Origin: a virus
Length of the DNA stretch: 64,000 bases
Strand: one strand, 5' to 3'
IMG/VR virus record: IMGVR_UViG_3300047372_000605
Span: 1-64,000 of that record
Position 1 is the stretch's first letter; the number at the start of each line of letters is the position of its first letter. Position numbers and translations under genes: made by a program. The notes under the pieces are model-generated. The model was given only the letters and a program-made list of their open reading frames with translations, was not told the DNA's origin and did no database searches. This document shows, in pieces, positions 6,923 through 62,493 of the stretch.

Positions 6923-8500
6923 ATGGCAACATGGAAAAAAGTAGTTGTATCAGGTAGTTCGTTAGCTCAGTTAGATAACAGTACCACCAACTACATAACT
7001 TCGGCGGGTGCACCAGTACAAAGTGTATCAGGTCAAACAGGAACTGTAACAACGACTCAGATATTAGCTGGTTCGACTGTTCTTTCAGGTTCCTTCCCAT
7101 CTGCACCTGTAACAAGTGTAGCAGGTCAAACGGGAGTAGTAACGCAAACCCAAATATTTGCAGGATCAGGAGCACTATCAGGCTCAGATTCAATGACTAT
7201 TGCGGGTAGCACAGTAGCATTAGGTGGTTCAATTACAGCCGATACTATTGCAGGTCAAATCAGTAATGACACTATTACTAACGCTCAGTTAGCGAATGAA
7301 GGAATGACCATTGCAGGTAACTCAGTAAACTTAGGTGGATCAGTTTCACAAGCAAATATATTAGCTGGTTCGACTGTTCTTTCTGGATCATTCCCATCTG
7401 CACCAGTAACAAGTGTAGCAGGTCAGACAGGAGTAGTAACACAGACTCAAATATTAGCTGGTTCAACTGTTCTTTCAGGTTCTTTCCCTACAGCACCAGT
7501 AACAAGTGTAGCAGGTCAAACAGGAGTAGTAACACAGACTCAAATATTTGCAGGATCAGGAGCATATTCAGGATCTAATTCAATGACTATTGCAGGACAA
7601 ACAGTAGCATTAGGAGGATCAATTACAGCGGATACTATCGCTGGCCAAATTAGCAACGATACTATTACCAATGCTCAATTAGCAAATGAAGGAATGACCA
7701 TTGCAGGTAACTCAGTAAACTTAGGTGGTTCAGTTTCACAAGCAAATATATTAGCTGGTTCAACTGTTCTTTCAGGTTCTTTCCCTACAGCACCAGTAAC
7801 AAGTGTGGCAGGTCAGACGGGAGTAGTAACACAGACTCAGATATTAGCTGGTTCAACTGTTCTTTCAGGTTCTTTCCCTACAGCACCAGTAACAAGTGTG
7901 GCAGGTCAGACAGGAGTAGTAACACAGACTCAGATATTAGCTGGTTCAACAGTATTATCAGGTTCGTTCCCAAGTGCATTCATTTCTTCTGTAACAGATA
8001 CTTCAGGCCAAACTGGTATTGATTTTACAGTAAATGCAGGAGCATTATCAGCAGTAGCTGTTGGATTAGGAACTAGTGATGATGTTGAATTTTCAAACTT
8101 AACAGTTTCAGGTGATTTAAGTGTAGCAGGAACTGCTTCATTTAAAAACGCTACAAACTTAAACGTAGCGGATCAATACATCTCAATGAACTCAGGTTCA
8201 GCAGGAGCTGCTAATGATTCTGGTGGTATAGTAGTACTACAAGATGGTCCTAATGGTGAATTATTCGGTTGGGCAGATGCAGCTGCATCAGCAATTGGTG
8301 GTCAAAGATGGGGTATTAAAACCAACTTTAACCCAAGTTCAACTGGTAATTTTGATCCAGATGCTTATATGGCAGCTGTATTAAAAGGACAAGATAATGT
8401 TAATAGTGCCTCAGGCATTGCAGCTATTGATAGTACTTACAACAGAAAAGGTAATATTTATGTAGCAAGTAATTTGGAGGATATTTGGATTTATTCTTAA
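6923..8500 (+). CDS. Repeat-rich fibre/structural protein (MxxWKKV family)
   Basis: 525 aa; repeats APVTSVAGQTGVVTQTQILAGSTVLSGSFP and MTIAGxxVxLGGS; N-terminus resembles that of the 31918 fibre. Confidence 0.6.
   Translation: MATWKKVVVSGSSLAQLDNSTTNYITSAGAPVQSVSGQTGTVTTTQILAGSTVLSGSFPSAPVTSVAGQTGVVTQTQIFAGSGALSGSDSMTIAGSTVALGGSITADTIAGQISNDTITNAQLANEGMTIAGNSVNLGGSVSQANILAGSTVLSGSFPSAPVTSVAGQTGVVTQTQILAGSTVLSGSFPTAPVTSVAGQTGVVTQTQIFAGSGAYSGSNSMTIAGQTVALGGSITADTIAGQISNDTITNAQLANEGMTIAGNSVNLGGSVSQANILAGSTVLSGSFPTAPVTSVAGQTGVVTQTQILAGSTVLSGSFPTAPVTSVAGQTGVVTQTQILAGSTVLSGSFPSAFISSVTDTSGQTGIDFTVNAGALSAVAVGLGTSDDVEFSNLTVSGDLSVAGTASFKNATNLNVADQYISMNSGSAGAANDSGGIVVLQDGPNGELFGWADAAASAIGGQRWGIKTNFNPSSTGNFDPDAYMAAVLKGQDNVNSASGIAAIDSTYNRKGNIYVASNLEDIWIYS
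7010..7975 (+). repeat. Coding tandem repeats (93-nt/31-aa units plus a larger duplicated block)
   Basis: Near-identical gcaccagtaacaagtgt(a/g)gcaggtca(a/g)ac...atattagctggttc units. Confidence 0.9.
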
Positions 8501-11391: not shown

Positions 11392-11430
11392 AAGCTAAAA
11401 AAATTAATATTTATAATAAATTAACAGAAC

Positions 11431-11919: not shown

Positions 11920-11940
11920 TAAAGATTTAAATATTTTATT

Positions 11941-11973
11941 AAAGGGAGCTTGGCTATGTCAAGCTCCTTTTTT
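11941..11973 (+). terminator. Rho-independent terminator
   Basis: GGAGCTTG-gctatgt-CAAGCTCC followed by a T6 tract. Confidence 0.85.
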
Positions 11974-12019
11974 ATATTGATATTTATAATAAATTAAAGT
12001 TATTAATAAATAAAAGATT

Positions 12020-13088: not shown

Positions 13089-13125
13089 CTATATTTTTAA
13101 ATATTTATAATAAATCCACATTCTT

Positions 13126-24751: not shown

Positions 24752-24783
24752 TTTGGATTCCAAATAATCAGTTTGTATATTCA
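24752..24783 (+). promoter_or_regulatory. Bacteroidota sigma-A-like promoter
   Basis: TTTG-N20-TATATTCA upstream of the SSB gene. Confidence 0.6.
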
Positions 24784-24813
24784 TGTCGAAATTTTTAAAA
24801 AACAGTTATAATT

Positions 24814-31825: not shown

Positions 31826-31855
31826 CCGTATTTATAAACATATAAAAATAAATTT

Positions 31856-31900
31856 GTTGGCCCTAATAAAGGGAAGTGGACTTCACCGTAAGTAGCCAAC
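31856..31900 (+). ncRNA. Putative structured RNA leader (three-way junction)
   Basis: GTTGG/CCAAC closing stem enclosing CCCT-aataa-AGGG and GTG-gactt-CAC; GC-rich island between TATTTATA and the ATG. Confidence 0.5.
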
Positions 31901-31917
31901 CGCAAAAATAAAAAATT

Positions 31918-35789: not shown

Positions 35790-35826
35790 TTTTTTTAGTA
35801 TTTATAATAAATCAAAAAAATAAAAA

Positions 35827-38481: not shown

Positions 38482-38486
38482 AATTA

Positions 38487-38518
38487 TTTGGCTTCCCCAA
38501 TAAAGGTTCGTATATTTA
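38487..38518 (+). promoter_or_regulatory. Bacteroidota sigma-A-like promoter upstream of the deazaguanine operon
   Basis: TTTG-N20-TATATTTA. Confidence 0.65.
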
Positions 38519-38521
38519 AGC

Positions 38522-49200: not shown

Positions 49201-49219
49201 TTTTCATATATTTATAGAT

Positions 49220-49748
49220 GCAAACTTAGGATGCACAAACAGCTCACCAAAATGGGAGCTTAGTAATTTAATAACAGGGTAGTTTAAACACCCACAAAAC
49301 TAAATGATATGAGTACATTATTTCACGAACGAACACCGTTCGACATTTTATTCAAAAACTTCTTTCAAGCAGAAGGAAAATTTCAACCAACAACATTCGA
49401 AAACAAACAACCTCACCCACTAGATATATTCTATAATGATGATGGTCTCAATTTTGAGATTGCCTGTACAGGTTTAACTAAAAAAGATATACAATTAAAA
49501 ATTGATGGAGATCAATTAAATATATCTTATGATAAACCATCAGAAGAAGAATCATATGAGGGTTATATCTATAAAGGACTAGCTAAAAGGTCTTTTAAAC
49601 TAGGATATAAAATAGCAGCTAAATTTGATTTATCAAAAATAGAAGCTAAAATGGAAAATGGTTTACTCCATTTATTCATCCCAACAGCCGCAGATAAAAA
49701 ATCAAAAATAGTAACAATAAAATAAAAAAAACTGCATCCTAGGTTTGC
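49220..49748. repeat. Long-range inverted repeat enclosing hsp20
   Basis: GCAAACTTAGGATGCA (49220-49235) / TGCATCCTAGGTTTGC (49733-49748): 15 Watson-Crick pairs plus 1 G:U. Confidence 0.85.
49309..49725 (+). CDS. Small heat-shock protein Hsp20
   Basis: P.DI, EIA..G..K.DI, Y.GLA.RSF, A.MENGLL.L.IP. Confidence 0.92.
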   Translation: MSTLFHERTPFDILFKNFFQAEGKFQPTTFENKQPHPLDIFYNDDGLNFEIACTGLTKKDIQLKIDGDQLNISYDKPSEEESYEGYIYKGLAKRSFKLGYKIAAKFDLSKIEAKMENGLLHLFIPTAADKKSKIVTIK

Positions 49749-49772
49749 TTATTAAACTATTTTTATTATATT
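49744..49772 (+). promoter_or_regulatory. Bacteroidota sigma-A-like promoter upstream of groES
   Basis: TTTG-N19-TATATT. Confidence 0.5.
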
Positions 49773-49800: not shown

Positions 49801-50166
49801 ATGGAATTAGAAGCATTATTCGATGCCGTTATTGTTAAACCTCAAGAAGAGGAAGAGACACAATATGGATCAATAGTAGTACCCGATTTAGGAAAAGACA
49901 GAAACGAACATGGAGAAGTAGTTGCTGTGGGTCCTGGAAGACAAGTAGCAGGAATTGGCTTTGTAGAAACTAATATTAAAGTTGGAGATAAAGTAATTCT
50001 ACCAACAATAGGTTTTACTAAACTTGAACATAAAGGAGATGAATATTATATCGGTTCTGAAAATCAAATATTAGCAAGAATAAATAATACAACATCAGTA
50101 GAGGATGTTTTAGCAGAAACAGAAGTATCAGAGGAAGATTTTGATGCTCTTAAATCAATAGATTAA
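49801..50166 (+). CDS. groES: Co-chaperonin GroES
   Basis: L.D.VIV, G.IVVPD, GEVVAVGPG, VGDKV; extra acidic C-terminal tail. Confidence 0.92.
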   Translation: MELEALFDAVIVKPQEEEETQYGSIVVPDLGKDRNEHGEVVAVGPGRQVAGIGFVETNIKVGDKVILPTIGFTKLEHKGDEYYIGSENQILARINNTTSVEDVLAETEVSEEDFDALKSID

Positions 50167-50167
50167 G

Positions 50168-51775
50168 ATGAGTAAAATTATAGAATTTGGCCCTGAAGCC
50201 AGAAAAAAACTAGTAAAAGGAATAGACCAAATAGCAGATGCTGTAGTATCTACATTAGGTCCAAATGGTAGGAATGTTGTTATTTCTAAACCAGGCCAAA
50301 CACCACAATCAACAAAAGATGGTGTAACAGTAGCAAAAAATATTTCATTAGAAGATCCAACTGAAGAGTTAGGAGTTCAAATGCTTAAACAAGCAGCTAT
50401 TAAAACCGCAGATAAAGCAGGAGATGGTACAACTACTTCTACTCTATTAGCTAGAGAAATGGTTAAAGCAGGTTTATCAGCTTTAGATAGTGGAGCAAAT
50501 GCTGTTGATATTAAAAGAGGAATTGATAAAGCTGTAGAACAGGTAATTCACCATTTAACCCCATTTCAAGAAGATGTCTCATCTCAAGAACAATTAGAGC
50601 AAGTAGCTACTATTTCAGCTAATAACGATGAAACTATAGGTAAATTAATTGCTACTGCAATGGAAAAAGTAGGTAGAGAAGGGGTAGTACATATTGAAGA
50701 ATCTAAAACAGGTGAAACTTATCTTGAAACCGTAGAGGGTATGCAATTTGATAGAGGTTATAAATCTCCTTATTTTGTTACTGATAATAATACTATGTCT
50801 ACTACTTTGAATGATTGTTATGTTTTAATAGCAGATCATACTTTTACCCAAGTAAAAGAATTATTACCGATATTAGAAAGTGTATCAAATACAAATAAAT
50901 CCCTTTTAATCATTGCCAAAGACATAGACAATGAAGCATTAGCTACCCTTATTGTAAATAAAATGAGAGGTTCATTAAAAGTATGTGCTGTTAAAGCTCC
51001 TGAATTTGGAGATAGACAAAAATTAGTTCTAGATGACATAGCTGTTCTAACTGGAGGTCAAGTATTCAGTAAAGAAAAAGGTATGAAACTAGAAAAGTTT
51101 AGTTGGGAATGGTTTGGTGAAGCTAGAGTATCTACTATTACTAAAGAAAAAACTACAATTGTAGATGGTAAAGGTTCAGAAGAAGCAATTACTGCTAGAG
51201 TAGAAGAATTATCTCAACAAATAGAAAGAGCTGATACACCATTTGCAATGGAAAAGTTACAAGATAGAATGTCTAAATTCGTAGGTGGAGTAGCAATTGT
51301 TCATGTAGGTGGAAATACTGAAACTGAGATGAATGAAAGAAAAGATAGAGTAGATGATGCCCTTAATGCCACAAAAGCAGCTATTGAAGAAGGTATTCTA
51401 CCAGGAGGAGGAGTTGCAATAGCAAGAGCTACACAGTGGGTAGAATATAATGGTAATGTAGATTTTAACATTGGAGTAGATATTGTTAAAATAGCATGTC
51501 AAAAACCATATGAACAAATCTTAAAAAATGCTGGAATAAATGAAATTCCTGAATTGGCAGAAGATGGAGAGTGGGAAGGATTTGATATTAGACAAAATAA
51601 AATGGTAGACTTTAAAGAAGCGGGTATTATAGATCCATTTAAGGTTACTAGAAGTGCATTACAAAATGCTGCATCAATAGCTGGAACTATTCTGTTAACA
51701 GAAGCCACAGTTGTTGATAAACCATCAGAAAATACAACACCAGAAATAGATCCATCCATGATGGGTATGATGTAA
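50168..51775 (+). CDS. groEL: Chaperonin GroEL
   Basis: TLGPNGRNV, TKDGVTVAK, AGDGTTT, EGMQFDRGY.SPYF, KAPEFGD, C-terminal MMGMM. Confidence 0.97.
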   Translation: MSKIIEFGPEARKKLVKGIDQIADAVVSTLGPNGRNVVISKPGQTPQSTKDGVTVAKNISLEDPTEELGVQMLKQAAIKTADKAGDGTTTSTLLAREMVKAGLSALDSGANAVDIKRGIDKAVEQVIHHLTPFQEDVSSQEQLEQVATISANNDETIGKLIATAMEKVGREGVVHIEESKTGETYLETVEGMQFDRGYKSPYFVTDNNTMSTTLNDCYVLIADHTFTQVKELLPILESVSNTNKSLLIIAKDIDNEALATLIVNKMRGSLKVCAVKAPEFGDRQKLVLDDIAVLTGGQVFSKEKGMKLEKFSWEWFGEARVSTITKEKTTIVDGKGSEEAITARVEELSQQIERADTPFAMEKLQDRMSKFVGGVAIVHVGGNTETEMNERKDRVDDALNATKAAIEEGILPGGGVAIARATQWVEYNGNVDFNIGVDIVKIACQKPYEQILKNAGINEIPELAEDGEWEGFDIRQNKMVDFKEAGIIDPFKVTRSALQNAASIAGTILLTEATVVDKPSENTTPEIDPSMMGMM

Positions 51776-51776
51776 T

Positions 51777-52040
51777 ATGAAAACAGAAGTTATAGAAAGA
51801 AATGAGTTAATAGCTACTAGAGTTCCACCTGGAGACAGATGGAATCTAGTAGATGACTCAAAAAAAGTTATTCACAAAAGTTTAACAGATGCTTTGGAAG
51901 CCTACCTAGGAGTTACTAACTTTAAGGGTGAGTATAGATTAGATCCTATTGGGAGTAAATTATATGCTATTAAAACTTCTGAAGAAGAGGTTAAACCTGA
52001 ACCAATAAAGAAGTATAACATTTATGGAGATGAATATTAA
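51777..52040 (+). CDS. Hypothetical protein
   Basis: 87 aa directly after groEL. Confidence 0.65.
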   Translation: MKTEVIERNELIATRVPPGDRWNLVDDSKKVIHKSLTDALEAYLGVTNFKGEYRLDPIGSKLYAIKTSEEEVKPEPIKKYNIYGDEY

Positions 52041-52373
52041 AATTGATGAGTCCTAAATTACCTAAAAAACAACGCTTATGGAAAATTTAGATATAATTAT
52101 AGGAACCCTGATTGGATCAGGTTTAACTACTTTAGTGGCATTTTTTATTACTAGGGTTTCAAATCGATTCAAACAGATAAATCAAGATTTACATGATGTA
52201 AATCAAGAACAATCAGCTCAATTGAATGAGATGTACGAAAGTACTTCAAAAGAAATTGAGAATTTACATAGAGAACTTGATTCTCAAATTAATAAACTAG
52301 AATCTAGATTGGTAAAACAATTTAAAGATTATAATTACAATAAATAATTAACCAATTTAGGACTCTCAATTTT
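52039..52373. repeat. Long-range inverted repeat enclosing ORF 52078-52347
   Basis: AAAATTGA(T)GAGTCCTAAATT (52039-52059) / AATTTAGGACTCTCAATTTT (52354-52373): 20 bp with one bulged T. Confidence 0.85.
52078..52347 (+). CDS. Single-TM coiled-coil protein
   Basis: N-terminal hydrophobic helix followed by heptad repeats. Confidence 0.7.
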   Translation: MENLDIIIGTLIGSGLTTLVAFFITRVSNRFKQINQDLHDVNQEQSAQLNEMYESTSKEIENLHRELDSQINKLESRLVKQFKDYNYNK

Positions 52374-53297
52374 ATGAAAGAACATTCATTATTAGTAGAA
52401 AAATATAGATCAAAAGATTTAACAGAGTATGTAGGAAATGAACACATTAAAACACAAATACAAAAATATCTAGACCAAGATGATATTCAAAACTTTATAT
52501 TCTATGGTCCTGCTGGTACTGGAAAAACAACCCTTGCTAAACTTATTGTTAATAATCTGGAGTGTGACTACCTTTACATCAACGCTTCTGATGAACGAGG
52601 TATCGAAACTATTAGGGATAAAGTCACAAGTTTCTCAAGCACTATATCGTTTAAAAAGATTAAAGTTGTCATCCTTGATGAGGCGGATTTTCTCACCATC
52701 CAAGCACAAGCATCTCTAAGAAATACAATTGAAACGTTTTCAAGAACCACACGTTTCATCCTCACTTGTAATTTTATAGAGCGTATTATAGATCCGCTTC
52801 AATCAAGGTGTCAAACATTAAAAATAGTACCACCAAGCAAAAAAGAAGTAGCAAAACATATAAAAGGGATACTAGACAAAGAACAAACAAAGTTCAAAAT
52901 TGAAGCTCTTGTTAACATAGTTAATAAACATCATCCGGATATACGAAAAATGTTAAACACTATTCAGTTATCAACACAAAATAATGAATTAGTATTAGAT
53001 GAATCTATTTTAGTATCATCCAATTATATTAAACAAATTATAGAAGAACTAAAACAGAAAAAAACCGATTTTAGAAAACTAAGGCAAATAATAGCCGATT
53101 CTCAAGTACGTGATTTTGAAGAATTATATAGAGCATTATTTGATCATGCCTCCGAATATGCCATTGGTAGAGAAGGAAGTGTAGCCATAATTTTAAATGA
53201 GCATCAATATCATTCTAACTTTCGTATTGATAAGGAAGTCAATATAGCGAGTGCATTAGCCAAAATAATTGAAATAAAAAAACCTCAAGTAATATAA
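52374..53297 (+). CDS. Clamp loader ATPase subunit (gp44/RFC-like)
   Basis: VEKYR, GPAGTGKTT, INASDERGI, ILDEAD, SRC. Confidence 0.95.
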   Translation: MKEHSLLVEKYRSKDLTEYVGNEHIKTQIQKYLDQDDIQNFIFYGPAGTGKTTLAKLIVNNLECDYLYINASDERGIETIRDKVTSFSSTISFKKIKVVILDEADFLTIQAQASLRNTIETFSRTTRFILTCNFIERIIDPLQSRCQTLKIVPPSKKEVAKHIKGILDKEQTKFKIEALVNIVNKHHPDIRKMLNTIQLSTQNNELVLDESILVSSNYIKQIIEELKQKKTDFRKLRQIIADSQVRDFEELYRALFDHASEYAIGREGSVAIILNEHQYHSNFRIDKEVNIASALAKIIEIKKPQVI

Positions 53298-62432: not shown

Positions 62433-62453
62433 TAAAAATTTATCGTATATTTG
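62422..62453 (+). promoter_or_regulatory. Bacteroidota sigma-A-like promoter
   Basis: ATTG-N20-TATATTTG; the -7 box is an exact TAnnTTTG match. Confidence 0.7.
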
Positions 62454-62493
62454 AAAAGCAATAGTTTAGTATAAACAAATAAAAAATAAAAAT

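Follow-up and report, generated by a model that had tools for sequence, protein, structure and literature searches.

The hsp20 gene of one phage is enclosed by a 16-nt inverted repeat, and both arms of the repeat sit in the intergenic spacers that flank the gene. Do the two arms pair with each other in the hsp20 message, and what would such pairing do? The window, i.e. the whole stretch of 64,000 nucleotides analyzed here, is the first 64 kb of a 92,958-bp IMG/VR virus record, which is ~59% complete. The G+C content of the window is ~30%, and every gene is carried by the + strand. One family B DNA polymerase gene is located upstream of hsp20, whereas groES and groEL are located downstream (Table 1). 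At the DNA level, groEL is nearest to that of Flavobacterium phage vB_FspM_immuto, with an identity of 70.7%. Relatives of hsp20 were found on only four MAG contigs among 185,579 species genomes; two of these contigs are labeled as Flavobacteriaceae, one as Bacteroidetes and one as unclassified bacterium. Based on the groEL match and the labels of the four contigs, the phage is an uncultured marine phage, probably with Flavobacteriaceae as its host group. No cultured phage with a related hsp20 was identified among 50,697 phage records at E ≤ 1e-8.

Table 1. Positions of the hsp20 closing helix, the second bracket and the neighboring genes and motifs (window numbering unless G000 is given)
Feature	Position	Strand	Basis or remark
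Promoter-like region before hsp20	49203-49219	+	motif enrichment; sequence
5′ arm of long-range helix, GCAAACTTAGGATGCA	49220-49235	+	sequence, fold, conserved in window-like lineage
Leader hairpin 1, AGCUC-a-CCA-aaa-UGG-GAGCU	49241-49260	+	in minimum-energy folds
Leader hairpin 2, GGGTAGTttaaACACCC, conserved bulged A	49277-49293	+	ends 15 nt before AUG; in minimum-energy folds
Mini reading frame AUG-AUA-UGA	49304-49312	+	stop overlaps hsp20 AUG; read from sequence
hsp20 CDS	49309-49725	+	138 aa; Pfam PF00011, E 3.7e-12
hsp20 stop codon TAA	49723-49725	+	
3′ arm of long-range helix, TGCATCCTAGGTTTGC	49733-49748	+	7 nt after hsp20 stop
Putative groES promoter-like element: TTGCTT (49745-49750), 16-nt spacer, TATATT (49767-49772)	49745-49772	+	
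groES	49801-50166	+	next gene after hsp20 in the window
groEL	50168-51775	+	after groES
Second bracket, 5′ arm, AAAATTGA-bulged t-GAGTCCTAAATT	52039-52059	+	starts inside TAA of the upstream 87-aa gene
Bracketed 89-aa gene	52078-52347	+	hydrophobic N-terminus; weak coiled-coil-like Pfam matches
Second bracket, 3′ arm, AATTTAGGACTC-TCAATTTT	52354-52373	+	abuts clamp-loader AUG at 52374
GTTCGTATATT(C/T)AC, examples in the window	24752-24813, 38482-38521, 62433-62493		
GTTCGTATATT(C/T)AC, examples in G000, among others	69183-69227, 72668-72747, 85419-85498, 88119-88492		
TATTTATAAT(A)AA	9251-9303, 11392-11430, 11920-12019, 13089-13125, 35790-35826		ending 13-30 nt before start
TATTTATAAT(A)AA	6805-6922, 31826-31917		~80-100 nt upstream of start

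The arms have the positions and the spacing that an earlier note on this DNA had given them; the 5′ arm begins 3 nt after TATTTATA (49209-49216) and the 3′ arm 7 nt past the stop codon. On the + strand, they form 15 Watson-Crick pairs and one U:G pair, between U49226 and G49742, confirming that the sole non-Watson-Crick pair is a wobble of the + strand transcript. With 16 bp, the complementarity between the leader and the sequence after the stop is above the ~10 bp or more that we took as the mark of a 5′UTR-3′UTR interaction. The closing helix lies 73 nt upstream of the hsp20 AUG. In both the minimum-energy and the centroid folds of the 535-nt RNA (49218-49752), the 16-bp helix is present together with the two leader hairpins. 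The energy of this fold is -119 kcal/mol, compared to -77 ± 5.5 kcal/mol for shuffled sequences (z -7.5). Several helices were also predicted within the hsp20 coding region of the same RNA. When folded alone, the 3′ spacer is without significant local structure (z -0.02); therefore, the 3′ arm has only the 5′ arm as its partner. Comparison of the region with the Rfam families gave no match. The best hit, RF01091, scored 23.9 bits (E 0.4), below the gathering threshold of 36 bits, and was rejected as a chance match.

On this genome alone, the evidence for the repeat is moderate and only suggestive, with a p value of about 0.03-0.1 against shuffles. Allowing up to one mismatch and an arm distance of 50-2000 nt, we counted 9 clusters of 16-nt inverted repeats, compared to 5.9 ± 2.5 in dinucleotide shuffles; such repeats are frequent in DNA as AT-rich as this. 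Within this class, 7 or more G/C are found only in the hsp20 repeat (0.12 expected), and a repeat of that kind is present in 10% of the shuffles. The spacers make up 5.8% of the genome; among the ungapped helices that connect spacers within 4 kb, the hsp20 helix ranks top with a score of 38, which was reached by 1 of 30 shuffles. Single-genome statistics of inverted repeats are weak, and it is comparative data that decide such cases. For the hsp20 repeat, the data from relatives make a chance origin untenable.

Protein-guided scans for relatives yielded 15 and then 39 viral contigs, four genome contigs and, from a total of over 500 metagenome contigs, the best 80. Both flanks were present in 105 loci of uncultured marine phage contigs, giving 87 distinct flank pairs. 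In 85 of the 87, the leader and the 3′ spacer share at least 10 contiguous Watson-Crick or G:U pairs; the exceptions are L082, bulged by the insertion of one base, and L120, apparently a recombinant between two types of arm. In most lineages the helix is composed of two parts, one inner G+C-rich segment of 10-13 bp and one outer A/U-rich segment of 5-8 bp, with an internal loop between them that has 1-6 nt in its 5′ strand and 1 nt in its 3′ strand. Different from these, the helix of the window's own lineage is continuous and has no internal loop. L131 has a continuous helix of at least 18 bp.

The largest class contains 64 distinct flank pairs. Its nine inner positions -5 to +3 are paired in every cell except for a single A:A at -4, and five of these positions vary (G:U/A-U/G-C, A-U/G:U, C-G/U:G, C-G/U:G/U-A and A-U/G:U). 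The outer helix of this class exists in 20 distinct arm-pair versions, including UAAUAUUG/CAAUAUUA, AAAAUG/CAUUUU, AAGAUG/CGUCUU, AACAU/AUGUU and AUAGU/ACUAU. Cognate outer partners pair at 6.05 of 7 positions, compared to 4.68 ± 0.23 for permuted partners; none of 2000 permutations was as high. In the MAFFT alignment A4 (30 sequences), 91.4% of the cells are paired, whereas only 33-58% are paired after the partners are slid by 1-3 columns. Nine pairs of the closing helix are altered on both sides in A4, and the covariation score is 0.194, a value that none of 500 shuffles reached (0.131 for shuffled data). When the whole region was aligned with plain MAFFT, two lineages, the window-like one and L030, were shifted relative to the rest, and the 5′ strand of the outer helix was left-justified; the A4 values hold despite the misplaced part of that strand. 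Because of this misregistration, the outer helix was scored on an anchor-based alignment in Python; the MAFFT-based count, 78%, understates it.

In more distant lineages, both helices are replaced as a whole. L030 carries ACUUUAGGGCGU/ACGCCCUAAAGU with AAUCA/UGGUU, and L148 carries CUCCAGGGCG/CGCCCUGGAG with AACCAAC/GUUGGUU. In L148 the apparently fixed core YUAGGG/CCCUAR is altered in a compensatory manner, from CUAGGG/CCCUAG to CCAGGG/CCCUGG. The covariation in homologues that the earlier note had proposed as a check was therefore observed; both segments change sequence between lineages yet stay complementary. Inside the window's own lineage, the GCAAAC/GUUUGC part is invariant and without covariation. 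Pairing is weakened in a few relatives, namely L120, L082 and the outer helix of L121. In L045, L120 and L121, arms of two different lineages appear to have been joined by recombination, one lineage providing the 5′ arm and the other the 3′ arm. The arms of L120 pair poorly; those of L045 and L121 do pair, with the help of wobbles or at the cost of one mismatch. L056, whose hsp20 is 27% identical, has ordinary local hairpins at both ends instead. The arms accompany hsp20 where the upstream or downstream neighbor genes differ.

Among the non-Watson-Crick cells of both helices, there are 106 G:U on the + strand and 10 A:C. Since G:U far exceeds A:C, the paired molecule is the sense RNA, not DNA. 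The relatives thus show both compensatory changes and a sense-strand G:U bias, the two marks of selection at the RNA level, and the proposal that the arms pair in the + strand transcript is upheld by covariation and G:U asymmetry in more than 80 relatives. Taken together, these observations indicated that, very probably, a selected sense-strand RNA helix joins the hsp20 leader to the 3′ UTR.

The hsp20 leader is structured in itself, as both of its local hairpins, which the earlier note had placed correctly, covary. Hairpin 1 is specific to the window's lineage; within this lineage, relatives carry GACUU...GAGUC or GAAGUC. Two of its pairs are altered on both sides, and a third pair occurs as C-G, U:G and U-A. 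Hairpin 2 is 100% paired in 30 relatives, with 3 of its 5 pairs altered on both sides. Its loop is UUCG in most relatives, and the variant GAGUAGC...GCACUC exists in the window's own lineage. In the fold, neither the two hairpins nor the closing helix covers the hsp20 AUG and the A-rich stretch that precedes it. At the hsp20 start, TGATATGAGT is invariant in alignments A2 and A4 and in every hsp20 lineage. The mini reading frame located there, the first codon of which is GTG in the L030 lineage, could be either a start-stop element or an initiation context that has been conserved.

Two overlapping motifs precede the 5′ arm. TTCATATATT (49203-49212) matches GTTCGTATATT(C/T)AC, a motif that is 8-13 fold enriched in spacers, mostly at a distance of 18-50 nt from the start codon downstream, and that probably represents the principal class of early or middle promoters in this phage. 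TATTTATAGAT (49209-49219) overlaps TTCATATATT and resembles the TATTTATAAT motif preceding structural genes. This second spacer motif, TATTTATAAT(A)AA, which takes the form TATTTATAAAC in two spacers, is probably a late promoter class. TATTTATA before hsp20 also resembles TATTTATAAT(A)AA. The motifs suggest that the hsp20 transcript starts within 49219-49226, on the edge of the 5′ arm or slightly within it. If the usual spacing of 7 nt applies, TTCATATATT would place the start at ~49219-49220, the initial base of the arm, and TATTTATAGAT at ~49225, five bases further in. With TATAGA as the -10 element, the start would be ~5 nt inside the 5′ arm, and so only ~11 bp would form in transcripts from the gene's own promoter. 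In the largest class of relatives, one TATAAT-like element precedes the outer helix, at a distance of exactly 6 nt from its first base. The hsp20 leader is ~85-90 nt in length, compared to motif-to-ATG distances of mostly 10-50 nt for other genes. On the other side of the gene, TTGCTT of the putative groES promoter overlaps the end of the 3′ arm. The overlap of the arm with a groES 'TTTG box', to which the earlier note had drawn attention, turned out to be lineage-specific; most relatives have a non-groES gene downstream and a different 3′ arm.

What would the helix do for the message? In the reading that we favor, to which we give a probability of roughly 55%, the closing helix is a stem that defines or protects the ends of the message, acting as a substrate of RNase III type or as a 5′/3′-UTR clamp like that of hbs. 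It is favored because pairing of this kind protects the hbs mRNA and creates an RNase III site in the icaR mRNA. The first nucleotides of the leader would pair with the 3′ UTR just past the stop, looping the ~500-nt message, and the resulting duplex of 16-20 bp would define and protect both termini of a monocistronic hsp20 mRNA. In longer transcripts, begun further upstream or continued into the downstream neighbor, the duplex would be a substrate of the double-strand-specific RNase III of the host. Cut or uncut, the 5′ and 3′ ends would stay base-paired and poorly accessible to end-dependent RNases, and the pairing of the ends would set the stability of the hsp20 message. Both arms would have to be on one transcript, with cleavage or stabilization as the predicted outcome; as to co-transcription, all genes are co-directional and the promoter-like motif is ahead of the 5′ arm.

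A classic RNase III site is a nearly unbroken duplex two turns or roughly 20 bp long. With 16 bp, the window's helix is short by this measure, which counts against the RNase III version of the favored reading; most relatives have 7 + 12 bp, interrupted by an internal loop. Further points against the favored reading are the ~11 bp left to transcripts that would start from TATAGA, the invariance of GCAAAC/GUUUGC in the window's own lineage and the weakened pairing in L120, L082 and L121. We found no phage-encoded RNase III in the 93-kb record, while the control genome, B. thetaiotaomicron, encodes RNase III. No RtcB or RNA ligase was found in the 93-kb record either, so the suggestion that the repeat is a circularization signal gains no support, and the circular RNA reading was rejected. 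As the record is ~59% complete, the absence of RNase III, RtcB and RNA ligase is not conclusive.

The main rival to the end-stem is a hok-type fold-back or kinetic switch, in which one local 5′ hairpin would hold the 5′ arm until the complete transcript refolds end-to-end, and translation or decay would be gated by transcript completion. In the largest class of relatives, the local stem GAACAUAA/UUAUGUUU and its variants do enclose the 5′ arm (L087:184-220; A4 columns 27-70). This stem is 91% paired, compared to 39-63% after sliding, one of its pairs occurs as C-G, U-A and A-U, and it is the minimum-energy fold of the L087 leader alone. However, the window's lineage lacks the stem and has only one 4-bp UGCA/UGCA hairpin, the 5′ strand of the stem is largely upstream of the predicted transcript start, and neither of the two conformations covers the AUG and the A-rich region upstream of it; we consider the switch unlikely. 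The exposed start region also bears on the RNA thermometer, the temperature-sensitive switch put forward in the earlier note, in which heat would melt the closing helix or a leader hairpin and turn hsp20 on. hsp20 is a heat-shock gene, and the relatives have conserved a number of G:U pairs in their inner helix. Nevertheless, no heat-labile stem holds the start region; the helix is located 73 nt further upstream, and in the fold the AUG and the A-rich region before it are paired neither by the helix nor by the hairpins. Between 10 and 65 °C, the predicted pair probability of the helix averages more than 0.95 for both the window and L091; for hairpin 2, which has a UUCG loop in most relatives, it exceeds 0.9 at temperatures up to 55 °C. 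Helix and hairpins are thus predicted to be stable from 10 °C to 55-65 °C, with the helix intact over the whole range, and this makes the thermometer very improbable.

The arms could also be the two halves of a gene-spanning intrinsic terminator, with the 5′ arm as the upstream half of the stem and a U-rich tract after the 3′ half. In a self-contained cassette of promoter and gene, the terminator would be expected at the position of the 3′ arm, and in some relatives the stem is followed by GUUUGC-UUUUU or AUGUUUUUUU. An ordinary terminator hairpin is absent after hsp20, because the 3′ spacer alone is without local structure; a consensus scan revealed no site resembling a terminator between these genes either. 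In the window, where the tail reads UUAUUAAAC, and in most lineages (AUUCGUAUAUU), however, the helix is followed by no proper U-tract but largely by the next promoter motif. In addition, what the covarying outer helix reveals is selection on pairing rather than on U content, and a helix across 500 nt would hardly form within the time of a transcriptional pause. A terminator of this kind is thus highly unlikely. At the DNA level, the arms might serve the recombination of an invertible segment, delimit a mobile cassette or be two copies of a regulator's operator that the chaperone promoters share. Arms of 16 bp at a distance of ~500 bp resemble Bacteroidota invertons, and the promoter-arm-gene-arm unit is found in different gene contexts. 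Against such elements, the departures from complementarity are strand-asymmetric (G:T to A:C on the + strand, 106 to 10), and the loops between the helix segments are unequal (1-6 nt vs 1 nt), so that the 'copies' would differ in spacing. The orientation of hsp20 relative to the outside promoter motifs is constant in 87 of 87 distinct flank sets, and the gene after the 3′ arm does not encode a chaperone in most lineages. The chance that the repeat is a DNA-level element is very slight.

The earlier note had also pointed to a second gene with the same architecture 2.3 kb downstream, and had seen a recurring system in the two. The second bracket is real and conserved. As RNA, AAAATTGA-u-GAGUCCUAAAUU pairs with AAUUUAGGACUC-UCAAUUUU around the 89-aa gene, giving a helix of 8 + 12 bp with one bulge, which is the strongest spacer pair in the genome (z -9.8). 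Among its relatives there are one compensatory change from G-C to A-U (L139, L144) and one change from U-A to U:G (L142). In L142 and L143, the promoter-like TTTCGTATATT and ~30 nt are inserted between the second 3′ arm and the clamp-loader ATG; due to this insertion, occlusion of the clamp-loader start is not conserved. The core TTAGGA/TCCTAA is common to both brackets. We regard this sharing as a coincidence, because the chance of a shared hexamer is ~0.1 by rough estimate and the hsp20 core covaries in L148.

Genome-wide, helices between spacers with a score of at least 24 are not enriched, with 10 observed and 10.5 in shuffles, and the remaining top spacer pairs are AT-rich or near-identical direct repeats. 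The recurring system therefore shrinks to two conserved cases, hsp20 and the 89-aa gene, in a genome whose helix count equals the shuffle expectation. The longest inverted repeat listed by the repeat finder is one 39-nt quasi-palindrome (CAGTTTCACAAGCAAATATATTAGCTGGTTC...), which occurs twice (7338-7376 and 7731-7769), 354 nt apart, inside a 525-aa ORF (6923-8500).

Pairing around a gene-sized RNA has precedents. Leader-trailer stems around 16S and 23S rRNA loop out gene-sized RNA. The hsp20 helix likewise encloses gene-sized RNA; different from the rRNA stems, the loop is a protein-coding message and belongs to a Bacteroidota phage. In the hok mRNA of plasmid R1, the extreme 5′ end pairs with the full-length 3′ end through the tac/fbi fold-back. 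Like hok, hsp20 pairs its 5′ end with its 3′ end, and the local 5′ hairpin of the relatives may compete with this pairing, as do the metastable structures of hok. Unlike hok, hsp20 shows no sign of a toxin, an antisense RNA or 3′ trimming, and the competing hairpin is absent in the window's lineage. The RNase III sites of T7 are ~20-bp intergenic processing stems with an asymmetric internal loop, which the largest class of relatives resembles in its order of 7 bp, loop and 12 bp. However, the T7 sites are local hairpins between genes, whereas the hsp20 pairing spans the gene.

In B. subtilis, the mRNA targets of RNase III have duplexes of 10-36 bp with arms up to 505 nt apart (PMC11780869). 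The length and span of the hsp20 duplex are within this mapped range (PMC11780869), with the helix at its short end; the B. subtilis duplexes are mapped targets, whereas that of hsp20 is a candidate. The hbs mRNA of the same species is protected from RNase Y by 14 bp of pairing between its 5′ and 3′ UTRs (Braun, Durand and Condon 2017, PMC5737220). Like hbs, hsp20 has a short monocistronic message and a leader/3′-UTR duplex of similar size (16-20 bp vs 14 bp), and the hbs duplex modulates RNase access. The hbs duplex overlaps a mapped RNase Y site and is backed by mutagenesis, while our knowledge of hsp20 comes from the comparison of sequences. Different from hbs, the 5′ arm of hsp20 is at the very start of the leader, and the pairing has phylogenetic support at a scale that hbs lacks. 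In S. aureus, the 3′ UTR of icaR pairs with its own 5′ UTR, creating an RNase III substrate (PMC3868564, PMC7821165). The hsp20 3′ UTR also pairs with the 5′ UTR of its own mRNA. The icaR 3′ UTR masks the ribosome-binding site; the start region of hsp20 is free, as the pairing lies 73 nt upstream of the AUG.

By its phylogenetic record, the hsp20 helix is a new and well-supported member of the small class of 5′/3′-UTR interactions. To our knowledge, almost none of these interactions has phylogenetic support. For one phage chaperone gene, there are dozens of independent versions of a two-helix clamp, with a second conserved clamp 2.3 kb away. They constitute a natural mutational series for the effects of a clamp on mRNA ends, decay and RNase III processing, and the phylum concerned, Bacteroidota, is one whose mRNA biology is poorly known. 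A bolder reading, which we think distinctly unlikely, is that a portable 'message-ends module' on promoter-gene cassettes replaces the terminator hairpin in marine Bacteroidota phages, senses transcript completion and fixes both mRNA ends. The local 5′ hairpin would then yield to the closing helix only after the 3′ arm is made. If this is true, the second bracket would also couple translation of the upstream gene to the abutting clamp-loader start codon, and the module would be a general way to build autonomous phage cassettes in hosts that do not rely on Shine-Dalgarno pairing.
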